From NCBI RefSeq assembly GCF_003991155.1, contig NZ_CP031293.1: 64,000 bases of DNA. The stretch is one strand, 5' to 3'. The position numbers and the translations under genes are program-made. This stretch comes from Escherichia coli. Lineage in GTDB: Bacteria > Pseudomonadota > Gammaproteobacteria > Enterobacterales > Enterobacteriaceae. Below the pieces are notes generated by a model that saw only the letters and a list, made by a program, of their open reading frames with translations, was not told the origin of the DNA and searched no databases. Shown here piece by piece: positions 12,573 to 32,573 of the stretch. Numbering within the stretch: position 1 is the first letter of the stretch; every line of letters starts with the position of its first letter.

Positions 12573-12610
12573 TTTGATTATTCATCATTAATATTTAACG
12601 TTCAGAATGA

Positions 12611-12640
12611 AAATAATCGCCCCGTTTTACAGGGGCGATG
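12611..12640 (-). terminator. intrinsic terminator for scrR (hairpin also downstream of queE)
   Basis: ATCGCCCC-gttttaca-GGGGCGAT with T-run on the minus strand. Confidence 0.65.
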
Positions 12641-12656
12641 CAAGATAGTGACGGGA

Positions 12657-13664
12657 TTATCGGTAGCGTTTTTGTAGACTGGCTGGAAGATAACGCTGTA
12701 ATGGGGATGGCGTTTCACCTTCAATCAGTTGCGAAATAAGCTCAAAGCAGTGAAAAGCAAGTTGGCGATTATCCTGTTGTATTGTGTCGATTCTTACCGA
12801 AAGTGAATCATACAAGTAATGATCATCAAAACTCGCCAGGTGGATTTTACTGTCGAGTAAATTATATTGGCTCATATAGCGCAGAACGCCTTCCAGTAAT
12901 CCACAAGCGGCAGTGAATAAGGCTTTAGGGGGACGTCCTAAACGAGCGCATAGCGCGGCAAACATTTCATAGCCTGAGCTCGGATGATAATTACCGTGAA
13001 TAATCCATTCAGGTTGTAGCGTTACTCCGGCTTGCTGCAAGCCTTGTGTAAATCCTTCCAGTCGATCGCGAGTCGGTGACAAACGGGGTTGTCCCCCCAG
13101 AAAATAGAATTCATCCGGGTGACTCCGTGCAATATCTGCCACCAGAGCGGTGGTGGGAGAAACAGAGTCAGTAATGACCAATGGCAATGTGCTGCCGTTC
13201 ATGTGGCGATCGAACAACACAACAGGTAATTGCTCGCTAAGTTTTTGATAGTCATTATCATGCAGCATACTGGATGCGACGATTAACCCATCAACCTGGC
13301 GGGCAATCATATTGTTCACCACCATTGTTTCCTGTGAAGGATTTTCATCAGTACAGGATATGAGGAGTTGGACGCCCGCTTCCCGACACAATGTTTCCAG
13401 TTCATGGGAAAATACTGCAAATCCGTAGTTAGTGATTTCAGGAACGACGAGACCAATGGTATGACTGCGGTTGTCCCGTAATGAGCGGGCATGAATGCTG
13501 GGCTGATAATGCTGCTGTTGGGCAATACTCAGCACACGCTCACGCGTTTCCTGCGCAACACGTAACTCTTTGCCACGACCATTGAGAACCAGACTGGCGG
13601 TTGCTTTCGACACTCCCGCCAGTTCAGCAATGTCTTTAATAGTAACGCGTTTGGTTTTTCTCAC
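12657..13664 (-). CDS. scrR: LacI-family sucrose operon repressor
   Basis: 335 aa; N-terminal HTH ([23 protein letters not shown]); position at end of scr operon. Confidence 0.88.
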
Positions 13665-13689
13665 GACGAGGATCCGTAATTCAAAACCC

Positions 13690-15099
13690 TCATTCTACCA
13701 TGCAGGCGCGTAGCGACCAGTAGCGTAACGTGACGTCAGACTCACCCTGTAATATCAGCGAAGCTGGATGATGGGGAAAATAACGATTACTCATTACACC
13801 TTCACCATTATTGATGAATATCTCTACGCTGGAACTGTCACAGAGAATCTTCAGTGACGTTACGCTTCCTCGCCAGTAACGAGTTAGTTTCTCTTGCCCT
13901 GCAAGGCTTCTCCTCTGTAGTTGAATACCATCGTCATTAAGATGCAGTGCCAGCGCATTGCCAAAATTCAGATACAGCTCACCCGACGGAATGATGTCCA
14001 TTTCCAGGCGTTCAATTTCGACATGCGGCGCATGATCTGCTTTTCCTTGCCAGAAGTGTTCAGCTTCACGCAGTTGCGCGAGTTCCCTGATTGGCATCTG
14101 AAACAATTTTCCCTTCTGGAATGAGAGTTCGCGAAAACAGGTCATTTGATGCTGCCAATGATGCTTTCTGGTTGGTTGCAACATCTCTTCGCCATCAGGA
14201 ACCCCCATCCAGCCGACCAGCAATCGTCGCCCGTCCGGGGCTTCCATCGTCTGTGGTGCATAGAATTCAAATCCCGCATCCAGCTCTGAGAAAGCGCCAT
14301 GCGTAAATTTGCCTGTCTCGTAATCAAACTGTCCATGTAGCCAGGCGCAGGGATAAGTATTCAGATAGCGCTCATGTTCGCGCACCATTCCCTGGGGGCA
14401 ACAGAGGAGAATGTATTCACCATCAAGGGCGAAAAAATCAGGACATTCCCACATGTATCCTGCGTTATCTATTTCATTCAGACCGTTACCAGCAATTTCT
14501 CCATGAAAAGACCAGGTATAGAGATCGACAGAGGAATACAGCAGCACTTTCCCCCGTTTCTCTTTATCTTGCGCGCCAAGCACCATGTACCATTGGCTGT
14601 TGTGCTTCCAGACTTTTGGATCACGAACATGTCCGGTGTAACCATCAGGTAACGGTATGACAGGGCCTAGTTTATCAAACCCGCCCTGGTTATTTTCGGT
14701 GGCCAGGCATTGCCATGCCGTTCTGCTGCCATCATCAAACTTAACATTACCGGTATAGCAAAGTGTGAGAACGCCCTGATTATTAACCGCGCTTCCTGAG
14801 TAACAACCATTACGGTCGTACTCTTTATCGGGCATTAGCGCTAATGGTTCATGCTGCCAGTGCAATAAATCCGTCGAACTCCAGTGCCCCCAACATTTGT
14901 ACTTATGATCACAAGCCAGTGGATTCCACTGATAAAACAGATGATAGCGGCCTCCAGACCAGCAAAAGCCATTTGGATCGTTCATTAGTCCAGTGACGGG
15001 AGCGAGATGCCAACAAGGATAGTGGGCATCTGCCAGTACTTTGGACTGACCTTTCATCACTGCCTGTAAAATCGCGGGCATTTGTGAAGGCATCGACAT
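13690..15099 (-). CDS. scrB: sucrose-6-phosphate hydrolase (GH32 invertase)
   Basis: 469 aa; GH32 motif MNDPNGF, WECPD; start overlaps scrA stop. Confidence 0.92.
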
Positions 15100-16469
15100 T
15101 ACTCCTCGTCCGTTTTGTATTTGAGTAATAAAGAGAGGCTAAAAGCGACAGCGAAAGCAATCACCATTCCAATAATATAATTAACCAACGATGTTGGCTG
15201 AACGATTGCCATGCCGGGTATTGCGGTCAGACCAACGGCAGTCATATAAACGTGAACAGAGACAACCCAGGCACCGCCGGCAGCGCCACCAATTAAGGCC
15301 GCAATAAAAGGTTTAACAAAACGAAGGTTGATACCAAAAATAGCGGCTTCAGTAATCCCTAACATTGCGGAAAAGGCCGAGGGTAGGGTGATTGCTTTAA
15401 TTTTTGTATCTTTGGTTTTAAACCATACCGCCAGACATGCACCGCCTTGCGCAACGTTTGCCATTGCCCAAATAGGCAGCAGGAAATTAACACCGATTGC
15501 AGGGTTACCTAAAAGTCCTGCTTCAATTGCGTGGAAGCTATGATGAATACCCGTAATAACAATCGCTGAATATAGTCCGCCGAATAACAACCCTGCTAAC
15601 CAGCCTGCGTGTGCAATCAGCGTGCTGAGAACGAAAGAGATACCGTCACCTAACGCTCGTCCTGCCGGACCAATAATCAAAAGAGCGATAAAGCCAGAAA
15701 TGACGACAGTCAGAAATGGCGTCAGAATGAGATCCAGAGCATCAGGGATAAACCTGCGTAACTGTTTTTCCACTATGCTCATAAACCATACTGCCAGAAG
15801 TACGGGGAAAACCGTTCCCTGATAGCCAATCATGGCGATTTCAAAACCGAAGAAGTTCATTGTCTGAAATCCCGCAGCAACGCCCCAGGCATTTGTGAGT
15901 GCCGGGTGAGTCAGAATCCCTCCTAATGTCGCGCCAAGATAAGGATTTCCACCAAATTCACGAGCAGCAGTAAAGCCAATAAGGATGGGGAGAATAATAA
16001 ATGCGGCTGAACTGCACATATCCAGCAGGATATAAATCGCATTATCGGCATTCACCCAGCCATATATTTTCACCATTCCCAGAAGCCCCATTAATAAACC
16101 AGAAGCAACAATGGCTGGAATGATGGGGACAAAAATATTAGAAAGTAGCCGTGCTATTCGCTGAAAAGGATTGAGTTTTTGAGCGGCGAGTCGAGCGGTA
16201 TCTGCTTTACTGGATTCGCTAATACCTGCAACCTGAATAAAGGCAGCATAGACTTTATTAACCACGCCGGTGCCAAAGATGATTTGCATTTGCCCTGAAT
16301 TACGAAAACAACCTTTCACTCCATCAATCTGGCCAATGGCATGTTGATCGGCAAGTGTGTCGTCAACCAGTACCAGCCGTAGGCGAGTGGCGCAATGTGC
16401 TGCACTGGTGATGTTCTCCTTACCACCTAATAAAGGAAGCAACGATTGGGCGATTTTATCGAAATCCAT
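15099..16469 (-). CDS. scrA: PTS sucrose-specific EIIBC component
   Basis: 456 aa; EIIB Cys motif (AAHCATRLRL) followed by EIIC membrane domain. Confidence 0.92.
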   Translation of the reverse strand: MDFDKIAQSLLPLLGGKENITSAAHCATRLRLVLVDDTLADQHAIGQIDGVKGCFRNSGQMQIIFGTGVVNKVYAAFIQVAGISESSKADTARLAAQKLNPFQRIARLLSNIFVPIIPAIVASGLLMGLLGMVKIYGWVNADNAIYILLDMCSSAAFIILPILIGFTAAREFGGNPYLGATLGGILTHPALTNAWGVAAGFQTMNFFGFEIAMIGYQGTVFPVLLAVWFMSIVEKQLRRFIPDALDLILTPFLTVVISGFIALLIIGPAGRALGDGISFVLSTLIAHAGWLAGLLFGGLYSAIVITGIHHSFHAIEAGLLGNPAIGVNFLLPIWAMANVAQGGACLAVWFKTKDTKIKAITLPSAFSAMLGITEAAIFGINLRFVKPFIAALIGGAAGGAWVVSVHVYMTAVGLTAIPGMAIVQPTSLVNYIIGMVIAFAVAFSLSLLLKYKTDEE

Positions 16470-16529
16470 ATAACCCTCTAATTCATTGTTATTTCAGTAA
16501 AAGCCTCACATCCGTGAGGCTGTCTGGTA

Positions 16530-18071
<1,542 letters not shown>

Positions 18072-18091
18072 TTATAAAAATTGCTAAAATG

Positions 18092-18105
18092 CTAAACCGG
18101 TTTAG
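18092..18105. promoter_or_regulatory. candidate ScrR operator (perfect palindrome CTAAACCGGTTTAG) upstream of scrY
   Basis: 14-bp perfect palindrome in scrK-scrY intergenic region. Confidence 0.6.
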
Positions 18106-18150
18106 GTGTTGATAATAAAGCTGACTTTTTAGCCAGAGCAATTATTTTCG

Positions 18151-18164
18151 CTAAACCGATTTAG
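18151..18164. promoter_or_regulatory. candidate second ScrR operator (CTAAACCGATTTAG)
   Basis: near-perfect copy of the palindrome 59 bp from the first. Confidence 0.55.
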
Positions 18165-18217
18165 TAAATGTGACAGGCACGACAAATCGGGTTACAGATA
18201 CAACAGCAGGATCACTA

Positions 18218-19135
18218 TTATGAAGGGAGATCGTGTTGTCGGGGTAAGGCGGTCATCGCGCCTTTAGCCGTGGTCGCCAGAGCACCACAAATCTGAGCTT
18301 GTGCAATGATTCGTTCAAGCTGTCTGGTATTTGTTGGTATTCCAGAATCAGCCAGACCTGCAAGTAATCCAGCGACAAAAGCATCTCCTGCCCCGGTCGT
18401 ATCGACGACAGAAACAGGTTTGGCGGGATAGTGGATAAACTGCCCCTGAAAATACACAAGTACGCCATTTTTTCCTTGTGTAATAAGCAATAAAGTCAAC
18501 GAATAACGTTGTACTAATGAATATGCGCCTTGCTGAACCTGGCTTTCGCCACTGATGAATAGCAACTCTTCTTCGGACAATTTAGCGATATTCGCCAGCG
18601 AAAGTGCGCGATCAAGGTATTTCCTTAATAGCGCTTCACTCTGCCAGAGATCGCTGCGGATATTGGGATCAAAACTGATGTTTCCGCCAGCCTGACGTAT
18701 TTTCTCCATAGCCAGAAATGCGGTACTTCGGGAAGGTTCTGCACTGAGCGCAATGGAACAAAGATGGAGCCATTCACCCGGCCCAAATGCAGGAAGGTCA
18801 CCAGGTTGTAAAAAAAGATCGGCACTTGGGCGTACCATAAAGGTAAAGTTTCTTTCTCCTTGCTCATCAAGTCCTACAGCCACAATTGAGGTGCGTTGTT
18901 GAGGATCAAGAGACATATAACGTGTATCAACATTTTCTGTACTCAGTGTCTGATACATAAAGCGACCGAAAGGATCATCGCCAACTTTGCCAATAAAGGC
19001 ACTTTTCCCCCCCAGCCTTGCGATACCGACTGCAACATTAGCAGGCGCCCCGCCAGGACACTGTAGTAGTCTCCCCTGGCTTTCGGGTAATAAATCAACA
19101 ACCGCATCACCGAGTACCCATACTCTTGCGCTCAT
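18218..19135 (-). CDS. scrK: fructokinase (PfkB family)
   Basis: 305 aa; PfkB/ribokinase motifs (DTTGAGDAF); first gene of scr cluster; RBS GGAG. Confidence 0.9.
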   Translation of the reverse strand: MSARVWVLGDAVVDLLPESQGRLLQCPGGAPANVAVGIARLGGKSAFIGKVGDDPFGRFMYQTLSTENVDTRYMSLDPQQRTSIVAVGLDEQGERNFTFMVRPSADLFLQPGDLPAFGPGEWLHLCSIALSAEPSRSTAFLAMEKIRQAGGNISFDPNIRSDLWQSEALLRKYLDRALSLANIAKLSEEELLFISGESQVQQGAYSLVQRYSLTLLLITQGKNGVLVYFQGQFIHYPAKPVSVVDTTGAGDAFVAGLLAGLADSGIPTNTRQLERIIAQAQICGALATTAKGAMTALPRQHDLPS

Positions 19136-19166
19136 AAAGGCTCCAATATACTAATTGCTAAACTAA

Positions 19167-19180
19167 TTAAATCGGTTTAG
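19167..19180. promoter_or_regulatory. candidate ScrR operator upstream of scrK (TTAAATCGGTTTAG)
   Basis: third copy of the same half-site pattern in the scrK promoter region. Confidence 0.5.
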
Positions 19181-19299
19181 CAATTAAAGCATAAACGCTG
19201 CTCAGGAGAGAACAATATTCAGCAGTGGTTACCCGGTATTTTGTGGTGGAAACGTGAATATGCCGGGATTAATCATCTACCCGGCACTGTTTATCTCAC

Positions 19300-30092: not shown

Positions 30093-30458
30093 TCATTCGC
30101 CGCGATAGATACAACCTGCGGTGCAGGTTTCTTTTACCATCACCGCACTTAACAGCGGCACAACGGGTTTAACCTGATCCCAAATCCATTTTGCTAAAAC
30201 TTCGCTGGTTGGGTTTTCCAGACCTGGAATATCATTGAGATAATGGTGATCGAGGCGCTCATAAGTTGGCTTAAACGCCGCTTTCAGTTCAGCGAAATCG
30301 ATAATCCAGCCCGTATGCGGATCGACTTCCCCGGTAATTTCCAGTCGCACCATAAAGGAATGCCCGTGCAGGCGACCACATTTATGTCCTTCCGGGACGT
30401 GTGGTAAGCGGTGAGCGGCTTCGAAGGTGAAATCTTTAAATAACGTGGTGGACATCAT
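30093..30458 (-). CDS. queD: 6-carboxy-5,6,7,8-tetrahydropterin synthase
   Basis: 121 aa from [10 protein letters not shown]; His/Cys zinc motif (CGRLHGHSF). Confidence 0.9.
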
Positions 30459-30773
30459 AATTTCTCTACAGGACGATAAAACCGCCGTAGAGTACCGGAA
30501 AGCCTGTTTTTTCGCATTATCTAAAACGACTTTGTTGCGCAAAATCGCTGATTTATCTTGATGATGGGAAATATTCATTTATTTTTCATTGGGTTGGTTA
30601 ATCTGTTTTGTTGTTAAAGACTATTGCTAAAACAGGTTAGTCGATTTGGTTATTAGTTATCGCTATCCCGTCTTTAATCCACACCGTTCGCCCCGTTAAC
30701 CTTACCTTCTCTTCTGTTTTATGGGCGCTGACAGGGCGCAGAAACAGCTTTGCTTACTGGAACATAACGACGC

Positions 30774-32573
30774 ATGACGACACAGGCCCCACCTTCCGCG
30801 TTGCTTCCGTTGAACCCGGAGCAACTGGCACGCCTTCAGGCGGCCACGACCGATTTAACTCCCACCCAGCTTGCCTGGGTTTCTGGCTATTTCTGGGGCG
30901 TGCTCAACCAGCAGCCTGCTGCGCTTGCAGCGACGCCAGCGCCCGCCGCAGAAATGCCGGGTATAACTATTATCTCCGCCTCGCAAACCGGCAATGCGCG
31001 CCGGGTTGCTGAAGCATTACGCGATGATTTATTGGCAGCAAAACTGAACGTTAAGCTGGTGAACGCGGGCGACTATAAATTCAAACAAATCGCCAGCGAA
31101 AAACTGCTTATCGTGGTGACGTCAACGCAAGGAGAAGGGGAACCGCCGGAAGAAGCCGTCGCGCTGCATAAGTTCCTGTTCTCCAAAAAAGCGCCGAAGC
31201 TGGAAAACACCGCATTTGCCGTGTTTAGCCTCGGCGATAGCTCTTATGAATTTTTCTGCCAGTCCGGGAAAGATTTTGACAGCAAGCTGGCGGAACTGGG
31301 CGGTGAACGCCTGCTCGACCGTGTCGATGCCGATGTTGAATATCAGGCCGCTGCCAGCGAGTGGCGCGCCCGCGTGGTTGATGCGCTTAAATCGCGTGCG
31401 CCTGTCGCGGCACCTTCGCAATCCGTCGCTACTGGCGCGGTAAATGAAATCCACACCAGCCCGTACAGCAAAGACGCGCCGCTGGTGGCGAGCCTCTCTG
31501 TTAACCAGAAAATTACCGGGCGTAACTCTGAAAAAGACGTTCGCCATATCGAAATTGACTTAGGTGACTCGGGCCTGCGTTACCAGCCGGGTGACGCGCT
31601 GGGTGTCTGGTATCAGAACGATCCGGCACTGGTGAAAGAACTTGTCGAACTGCTGTGGCTGAAAGGCGATGAACCTGTCACCGTCGAGGGCAAAACGTTG
31701 CCTCTGAACGAAGCGCTACAGTGGCACTTCGAACTGACCGTCAACACCGCCAACATTGTTGAGAACTATGCCACGCTTACCCGCAGCGAAACGCTGCTGC
31801 CGCTGGTGGGCGATAAAGCGAAGTTACAGCATTACGCCGCGACCACGCCGATTGTCGACATGGTGCGTTTCTCTCCGGCGCAACTGGATGCCGAAGCGCT
31901 GATTAATCTGCTGCGCCCGCTGACCCCGCGCCTGTATTCCATCGCCTCCTCGCAGGCGGAAGTCGAGAACGAAGTACACGTCACCGTTGGCGTGGTGCGT
32001 TACGACGTGGAAGGCCGCGCCCGTGCCGGTGGTGCCTCCAGCTTCCTCGCGGACCGCGTGGAAGAAGAGGGCGAAGTCCGCGTATTTATCGAACATAACG
32101 ACAACTTCCGCCTGCCAGCCAACCCAGAAACCCCGGTGATTATGATTGGCCCAGGCACCGGCATCGCGCCGTTCCGCGCCTTTATGCAGCAGCGCGCCGC
32201 TGACGAAGCGCCGGGTAAAAACTGGTTGTTCTTTGGCAACCCGCACTTTACGGAAGATTTCCTCTACCAGGTGGAGTGGCAGCGCTACGTCAAAGAGGGC
32301 GTGCTGACGCGTATCGATCTTGCCTGGTCGCGCGATCAAAAAGAAAAAATTTACGTACAAGACAAACTGCGCGAACAGGGCGCAGAGCTGTGGCGCTGGA
32401 TCAATGACGGTGCCCACATTTATGTCTGCGGCGACGCTAATCGCATGGCGAAAGACGTTGAGCAGGCACTTCTGGAAGTGATTGCCGAATTTGGTGGCAT
32501 GGACACCGAAGCGGCGGATGAATTTTTAAGTGAGCTGCGCGTAGAGCGCCGTTATCAGCGAGATGTCTACTAA
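30774..32573 (+). CDS. cysJ: sulfite reductase [NADPH] flavoprotein alpha component
   Basis: 599 aa; flavodoxin-like and FAD/NADPH-binding domains. Confidence 0.96.

Follow-up and report, generated by a model that had tools for sequence, protein, structure and literature searches.

Three copies of a palindromic motif upstream of scrY and scrK in the E. coli chromosomal scr island are very probably the operators through which the repressor ScrR controls both genes, in a standard switch of the LacI type. The window, that is, the whole 64-kb stretch of DNA that was analysed, carries this island between queE and ygcE, with the genes in the order scrK-scrY-scrA-scrB-scrR, all on the minus strand. 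scrK (18218-19135), a transcription unit of its own, codes for a fructokinase (NF006957 at 509 bits), scrY (16530-18047) for a sucrose porin, scrA (15099-16469) for the IIBC subunit of the sucrose PTS transporter, scrB (13690-15099) for a sucrose-6-phosphate hydrolase and scrR (12657-13664, with a GTG start) for a LacI-family repressor of 335 residues. Because the genes lie on the minus strand, the DNA upstream of scrY is the 170-bp scrK-scrY spacer (18048-18217), and the scrK promoter falls within 19136-19299. The RefSeq annotation at the island consists of coding sequences only. The segment 17900-19400 is 100% identical to that of E. coli 2016C-3878, and 987 of the 5,426 complete E. coli genomes contain it at nearly its full length.

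The sequence-only reading had placed a perfect 14-bp palindrome at 18092-18105, a near-copy at 18151-18164 and a third copy in the scrK promoter at 19167-19180, and all three were found exactly there. The first, CTAAACCGGTTTAG, is indeed a perfect palindrome; the second, CTAAACCGATTTAG (CTAAATCGGTTTAG on the gene strand), has one asymmetric position beside its central CG; and the third, TTAAATCGGTTTAG, reads CTAAACCGATTTAA on the minus strand, the strand of the gene, and lies 32 bp before the scrK ATG. The first two fall in the scrK-scrY spacer, and the proposed placing 5' of scrY and scrK thus holds as well. We refer to the three minus-strand sites as O_Y2 (proximal scrY operator), O_Y1 (distal scrY operator) and O_K (scrK operator), respectively. 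The 14-bp cores extend to 16-mers (18091-18106 for O_Y2, 18150-18165 for O_Y1 and 19166-19181 for O_K) with the consensus GCTAAACCGGTTTAGC. All three sites combine an inverted repeat within the 14-20 bp range with a central CG, and so have the look of LacI-family operators that had been claimed for them.

The motif is almost confined to these positions. A search with CTAAACCGNTTTAG, allowing up to two mismatches, returned 7 strand-hits in the 64 kb, 6 of them from the three sites, against 1.14 expected by chance as estimated from 100 dinucleotide shuffles, none of which reached 7. In a repeat search, the scrY pair came up as a 15-nt repeat with a spacing of 59 bp. Furthermore, a 20-bp weight matrix derived from other species picked exactly three sites in the window, O_Y2 at 25.8 bits, O_Y1 at 26.9 bits and O_K at 27.3 bits, with the runner-up at 10.2 bits. 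This runner-up, at 30624-30643, was dropped as a possible fourth site: its score is at shuffle level, it has no central CG, and the divergent intergenic region around it is unrelated. A partial copy at 18184-18194, seen as an inverted repeat, was also dropped; it gave no weight-matrix score, and it overlaps both a CRP-like site and the region that in other species holds the T-run of the scrK terminator.

The conservation of the sites was assessed in 80 scr loci from different Enterobacterales species, fetched by means of an alignment of 18 ScrY proteins. The order scrK-scrY-scrA-scrB-scrR is kept in nearly all of the 80 loci (at least 70), and the identity of ScrR across them is 66-87%. The palindrome recurs, with its three positions unchanged, in about 70-76 of the 80 loci, in intergenic DNA that is otherwise barely alignable. 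In nearly every locus the scrY ATG is preceded by two copies, at distances of about 116 and 57 bp, and in 71 loci the scrK ATG by one, at 28-70 bp. The layout holds even where scrK lies 2.5-5 kb from scrY (loci L044, L045, L058, L060 and L063). For O_Y1, a counterpart between -105 and -125 relative to the scrY ATG was found in 71 loci, and the distance between O_Y1 and O_Y2 is confined to 56-60 bp (60 bp in 35 loci, 59 in 19, 58 in 16 and 56 in one; 59 in the window). Among 67 distinct orthologous promoters, O_Y2 is unchanged in almost all, and GCTAAAC, the left half of O_K, is the same in 52 of the 52 distinct sites compared. None of the 132 distinct orthologous sites collected departs from the central CG, which was itself a condition of the collection; a few scrK sites of Erwinia have CA instead. 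The K. pneumoniae locus (L030) has TTAAACCGGTTTAG, CTAAACCGGTTTAG and CTAAACCGGTTTAA at the same offsets. A Salmonella plasmid locus (H31, L081), initially considered as pUR400-like, was set aside as a raffinose-type cluster; it codes for an alpha-galactosidase, an MFS transporter, a GH32 enzyme and crr.

These data also bear on the nature of the motif. Were the palindromes chance repeats, the shuffles should have reached the observed count, which none did. Were they RNA hairpins or terminators rather than sites for a protein on DNA, it would be in keeping that the predicted scrY transcript includes the proximal site and that a terminator-like hairpin, at 18136-18121, was picked up nearby in a consensus scan. 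That hairpin, however, is not conserved, and the 14-nt palindrome itself gives just a short A/U-rich stem of about 5 bp. Moreover, it is the sequence that is conserved, with an invariant central CG, and no compensatory pairing changes were seen among the sites; the predicted scrY promoter is preceded by the distal site, and the scrK site falls within the spacer of its predicted promoter. Taken together, chance and RNA structure are highly improbable as explanations.

The candidate regulator is encoded in the same locus as the sites. The product of scrR has an N-terminal helix-turn-helix (Pfam PF00356, 57.6 bits) and periplasmic-binding-protein-like (sugar-binding) domains, and matches TIGR02417, the fructose/sucrose-type repressor model, at 463 bits against a cut-off of 390. 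Its identity to the ScrR of K. pneumoniae ATCC 13883 is 85%, and across 77 orthologues there is hardly any variation in the residues of the helix-turn-helix and the hinge. The proposal that the palindromes are ScrR binding sites is supported by this in-locus LacI-family repressor, by conservation of the sites across species and by the literature on ScrR.

ScrR has a paralogue, Cra (FruR), which also matches TIGR02417 and provides the closest solved structures, and it could be argued that the palindromes are Cra boxes on which Cra rather than ScrR acts. The half-sites are alike (GCTAAACC in the scr sites and GCTGAAAC for Cra), a Cra-like box has been proposed in the promoter region of scrAB in E. 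aerogenes, and a cra mutant showed a decrease of 25-32% in scrA and scrB mRNA (PMC4521459). The Cra operators, of box TGAAACGTTTCA (as at fruBKA), resemble the scr sites in being 16-bp dyads with a central CG that share 6 of 8 positions per half-site, and the effector is likewise a fructose phosphate. The two differ consistently at two positions of each half-site, where the scr sites have A for G, and C for A beside the centre; the scr regulon is also local, whereas that of Cra is global. The window cores TAAACCGGTTTA and TAAACCGATTTA match the Cra box (core TGAAAC|GTTTCA) at only 8 of 12 positions, and the position of the Cra-box G is A in nearly all of the 132 distinct orthologous sites. The motif accompanies scrR in every locus, which argues against Cra, and mutational evidence in pUR400 gives the repeats to ScrR (PMC11251922). 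Finally, the reported effect of Cra is small and its direction activating. We therefore consider it very unlikely that these are Cra sites, and retain ScrR as the protein that would bind them.

A MAFFT alignment of 76 distinct regions upstream of scrY revealed a few conserved islands, consisting of TTTG...TCACA, the distal operator, TTGC, T-A-n-n-n-T, the proximal operator and the Shine-Dalgarno sequence, with the rest unconserved. The TTGC island marks a predicted -35 element, TTGCTC (18136-18141, minus strand), and the T-A-n-n-n-T island a predicted -10 element, TATTAT (18112-18117, minus strand), with an 18-bp spacer; in about 68 of the 75 distinct sequences scanned, the best sigma-70 match has the same offset. 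This would locate the scrY promoter between the two scrY sites, with a predicted start at about 18105. A consensus scan of the scrK-scrY spacer returned TTTACT-16-AATAAT (18168-18141) as its sole promoter on the gene strand, but the -10 of this candidate is not conserved and it was dropped in favour of the one kept in about 68 of the 75 sequences. Relative to the predicted start, O_Y2 begins 6 nt after the -10 and covers +1 to +14 of the transcript, and O_Y1, centred at about -52.5, ends 8 bp before the -35 and lies between the latter and a CRP-like site. This CRP-like site, attTGTCGtgcctgTCACAttt (18166-18187, minus strand), is centred at 18176.5, or about -71.5 if transcription starts at 18105 as predicted. 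It reads TGTCG-N6-TCACA (18184-18169), to be compared with TGTGA-N6-TCACA, centred near -61.5, -71.5 or similar, for class I CRP sites, and its left half has only 3 of 5 consensus matches in the window; TTTG is conserved, and TCACA, whose offset is fixed, is the same in 55 of the 55 distinct sequences compared. This invariance of TCACA differs from the description of the CRP site as poorly conserved (PMC11251922).

The arrangement agrees with what has been described for pUR400, in which two 14-bp inverted repeats flanking the -35 and -10 of scrY are the ScrR operators, as judged by mutational evidence, the downstream repeat covering the expected start; a CRP site further upstream and catabolite repression are also reported (PMC11251922, Front Microbiol 2024). 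The operators were found to be highly conserved in eight species including E. coli, and the E. coli scrY promoter is already aligned and annotated in Figure 5 of that work, which does not discuss the scrK site. The scrY sites of the window fit this description, in that they flank the -35 and -10 and the downstream one lies over the predicted start. Primer scrK43F of the same study matches 19267-19245 of the window, and the same type of locus was therefore studied. The scr systems of pUR400 and K. pneumoniae (Cowan et al., 1991; Jahreis and Lengeler, 1993, via PMC11251922 and PMC4521459) have the same gene order, an orthologous ScrR and likewise two 14-bp repeats flanking the -35 and -10 of scrY, with a CRP site upstream. 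The present locus differs in single bases beside the central CG, in a comparison with the genome sequence of L030 (K. pneumoniae ATCC 13883), and in its chromosomal placing between queE and ygcE. A similar design is also found in the non-PTS csc sucrose system of E. coli, where two repeats for CscR, another LacI-family repressor, flank the -35 and -10, with the downstream repeat over the start site and a CRP site upstream (Jahreis et al., 2002, per PMC11251922). In contrast to the scr sites, the CscR operators are 12 bp long and of another sequence, and they belong to a non-orthologous repressor and another pathway.

For the scrK promoter, Jahreis and Lengeler (1993) are cited as having found that it and a second scr promoter are both repressed by ScrR (PMC4521459). 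The assignment of O_K to ScrR is supported by the conservation of the putative operator together with this secondary statement. The supplements of a LacI-family regulon survey list ScrR groups, and site sequences are absent from them (PMC4052901). In the literature covered, no usable published scr operator sequences were found. Jahreis and Lengeler are also said to have described the scrK operator.

From conservation, we assigned to scrK a predicted -35, TTTAAT (19183-19188, minus strand; TTGATT or TTGCTT in Kosakonia, Yersinia and Brenneria), and a predicted -10, TAGTTT (19160-19165, minus strand; TAAGTT, TAATGT, TAATTT or TAAAGT in orthologues), separated by a 17-bp spacer with O_K inside. 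Counted from the operator, the -35 of the commonest best scrK promoter across the loci is at -8 and the -10 at +15. Within the window, TTGTTC-16-TATGCT (19215-19188) slightly outscores this conserved promoter, and O_K would then be at the start site. Under either predicted promoter, the putative operator overlaps the core promoter. Thus, all three sites overlap or adjoin a core promoter, at fixed offsets to conserved -35 and -10 hexamers, the starts themselves being predicted.

The scrK site is not symmetric, and its weak right half raises the question of whether only some of the three sites work, with another, for example the asymmetric one of scrK or the distal one of scrY, being a remnant. 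The right half of O_K reads ATTTAAT and has decayed to ATTCTTC in Yersinia, and a clear distal scrY site was not found in five of the 80 loci (L031, L057, L065, L074 and L079). Nevertheless, for each of the three positions a site is retained in some 70 or more of the 80 species, with the CG and the GCTAAAC/GTTTAGC halves invariant and the flanks unconserved, and both scrY repeats of pUR400 are backed by mutational evidence (PMC11251922). We find it improbable to a high degree that any of the three is a remnant, and treat all of them as putative operators of ScrR.

The weak inner half of O_K is followed, 9 bp downstream, by an additional and perfect half-site of the ScrR type, GTTTAGC (19157-19163, minus strand), which overlaps the predicted -10 and the discriminator region. 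It makes up an outer dyad with the GCTAAAC of 19175-19181, and in E. coli the region is a near-palindrome of 35 bp (19152-19186) whose 17-nt arms (19152-19168 and 19170-19186) are 88% complementary. With a distance of 9-12 bp from the inner half, in most cases 10, a downstream TTTAGC is shared by 45 of the 64 distinct scrK promoters compared; its background frequency is 0.0006 per position. In all 45 of these promoters the inner half is imperfect, and the extra TTTAGC was found in none of the 15 scrK promoters with a perfect inner GTTTAGC, all or nearly all of which are from Erwiniaceae. Yersinia and Brenneria retain the outer TTTTAGC while their inner half has degenerated to ATTCTTC. The presence or absence of the extra half-site follows a largely phylogenetic split, and thus reflects only one or two events. 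That the outer half is identical to the ScrR half-site across very divergent lineages suggests that it is an auxiliary contact for ScrR. Possibly, then, the scrK promoter has a three-part operator, composed of GCTAAAC, the weak inner ATTTAAT, which overlaps the -10 region, and the outer GTTTAGC about one helical turn further on; we put this forward tentatively, as an arrangement that we think rather unlikely. A second TTTAGC (18083-18088, minus strand) is found 8 bp after the right half of O_Y2 (GTTTAGCATTTTAGCA), and is present in 18 of 67 distinct scrY promoters, from E. coli, Enterobacter, Citrobacter, Lelliottia, Yersinia and Brenneria. The same recognition of an extra half may take place there. 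CytR is a repressor of the LacI family that tolerates a variable spacing between half-sites. The scrK promoter, with its perfect half-sites one helical turn wider than in the canonical operator, recalls CytR, a likeness that we offer as a lead only; ScrR itself shows no sign of such flexibility.

The site positions, combined with what is published on ScrR, suggest how the switch could work; that the sites exist, are non-random, are conserved and keep fixed offsets comes from the present analysis, whereas ScrR binding and the inducers are taken from the literature. Without inducer, a ScrR dimer would occupy each 16-bp site. At scrY, the proximal site covers the predicted start, and its occupation would block the polymerase. 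The distal site fills the gap between the CRP-like site and the -35, which is the usual contact zone of the RNA polymerase alpha C-terminal domain beside CRP, and ScrR bound there would probably also stop the CRP-dependent recruitment of polymerase. At scrK, ScrR would fill the spacer between the -35 and -10. We infer that ScrR binds the sites independently rather than through a loop. Looping between the two scrY sites is unlikely since their spacing of 56-60 bp (about 5.6 helical turns for 58-60 bp) puts them out of phase and since the 335-residue ScrR appears to be without the C-terminal tetramerisation helix of LacI. Upon import and cleavage of sucrose, fructose or fructose-1-phosphate would free ScrR from the DNA, as published for the orthologues of pUR400 and K. 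pneumoniae (PMC11251922), and the scrK and scrYAB(R) units would then both be transcribed.

The ScrR operators described here are already known: they were worked out in the 1990s (1991-1993) and re-described for E. coli in 2024. The sites constitute the regulatory logic of the sucrose island, and their relevance reaches little beyond annotation; knowledge of the operators helps in the design of strains that use sucrose and in understanding variants that are sucrose-negative or constitutive. The conserved outer half-site of scrK may be the one possibly new element in this locus. If ScrR does use it, whether by a second dimer, by a higher oligomer or by a flexible reach like that of CytR, this would be an unusual mode of recognition within the LacI family.

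In the window sequence, the scrK promoter forms a 35-bp near-palindrome (19152-19186) whose midpoint lies at 19169, whereas the centre of the 14-mer operator falls at 19173.5. Within this near-palindrome, 11 nt separate two perfect half-sites, GCTAAAC and GTTTAGC, the latter being the outer half-site (19157-19163), downstream of the weak right half of the 14-mer, or inner half. Of 64 distinct scrK promoters, 45 retained the outer GTTTAGC, in every case together with an imperfect inner half. Among the same promoters, those with a perfect inner half, found in the Erwiniaceae, were missing the outer GTTTAGC.

The scrY promoter also carries additional elements. A second TTTAGC (18083-18088) is found 8 bp past the right half of the proximal operator (GTTTAGCATTTTAGCA). 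This element is common to Enterobacter, Citrobacter, Lelliottia, Yersinia and Brenneria, and was not found in the orthologous scrY promoters of Klebsiella, Kosakonia and Pantoea. A CRP-like site is located at 18166-18187. In E. coli the match to the left half (TGTCG) is weak; the TCACA half was invariant in 55/55 distinct orthologous sequences and its distance to the distal operator was fixed, although the CRP site has been described as poorly conserved (PMC11251922).

The arrangement of the cluster varied among the scr loci collected from other Enterobacterales. In some Pantoea and Mixta loci (L044, L045, L058, L060 and L063), scrK lies 2.5-5 kb from scrY, and despite this separation neither promoter has lost its operators. 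The two genes are divergent in Rouxiella and two uncultured Enterobacterales (L072, L075 and L077), where the shared region carries the sites. Neither scrA nor scrB was seen between scrY and scrR in the Cedecea locus (L031). A Salmonella enterica plasmid locus (L081; NZ_CP022492.1, 17365-31853) is a raffinose-type cluster and not a pUR400-type scr locus: its scrK-like kinase and carbohydrate porin are encoded together with crr and with genes for an alpha-galactosidase, an MFS transporter and a GH32 enzyme.

Outside the cluster, a weak motif match without the central CG (TTGCTAAAACAGGTTAGTCG, 30624-30643) is located between divergent ORFs of 161 aa (30093-30578, minus strand) and 599 aa (30774-32573, plus strand). 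It was rejected as a further site because its score, 10.2 bits, is at chance level. The scrR gene itself starts with GTG (13662-13664), and the 29 N-terminal residues of ScrR were nearly invariant among 77 orthologues.

Of the 5,426 E. coli genomes available as complete sequences, 987 carry the scr island (12573-19299), which is located between queE and ygcE. It has no flanking mobile elements and replaces the CRISPR2.2 array present at this position in scr-negative strains (PMC11251922). Near the island boundary, directly after the ygcE stop codon (19300), a GCCGGG-N-CCCGGC hairpin followed by a T-rich stretch (19262-19285) is probably the ygcE terminator. In many other species (L003, L012 and L033 among the loci), a GC-rich hairpin (GGCCGCC...GGCGGCC) with a T-run after it separates scrK from the CRP-like site and looks like a scrK terminator. 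No such hairpin is present in the corresponding part of the E. coli scrK-scrY spacer (18188-18217), which fits the read-through from scrK into scrYAB suggested before (PMC11251922).
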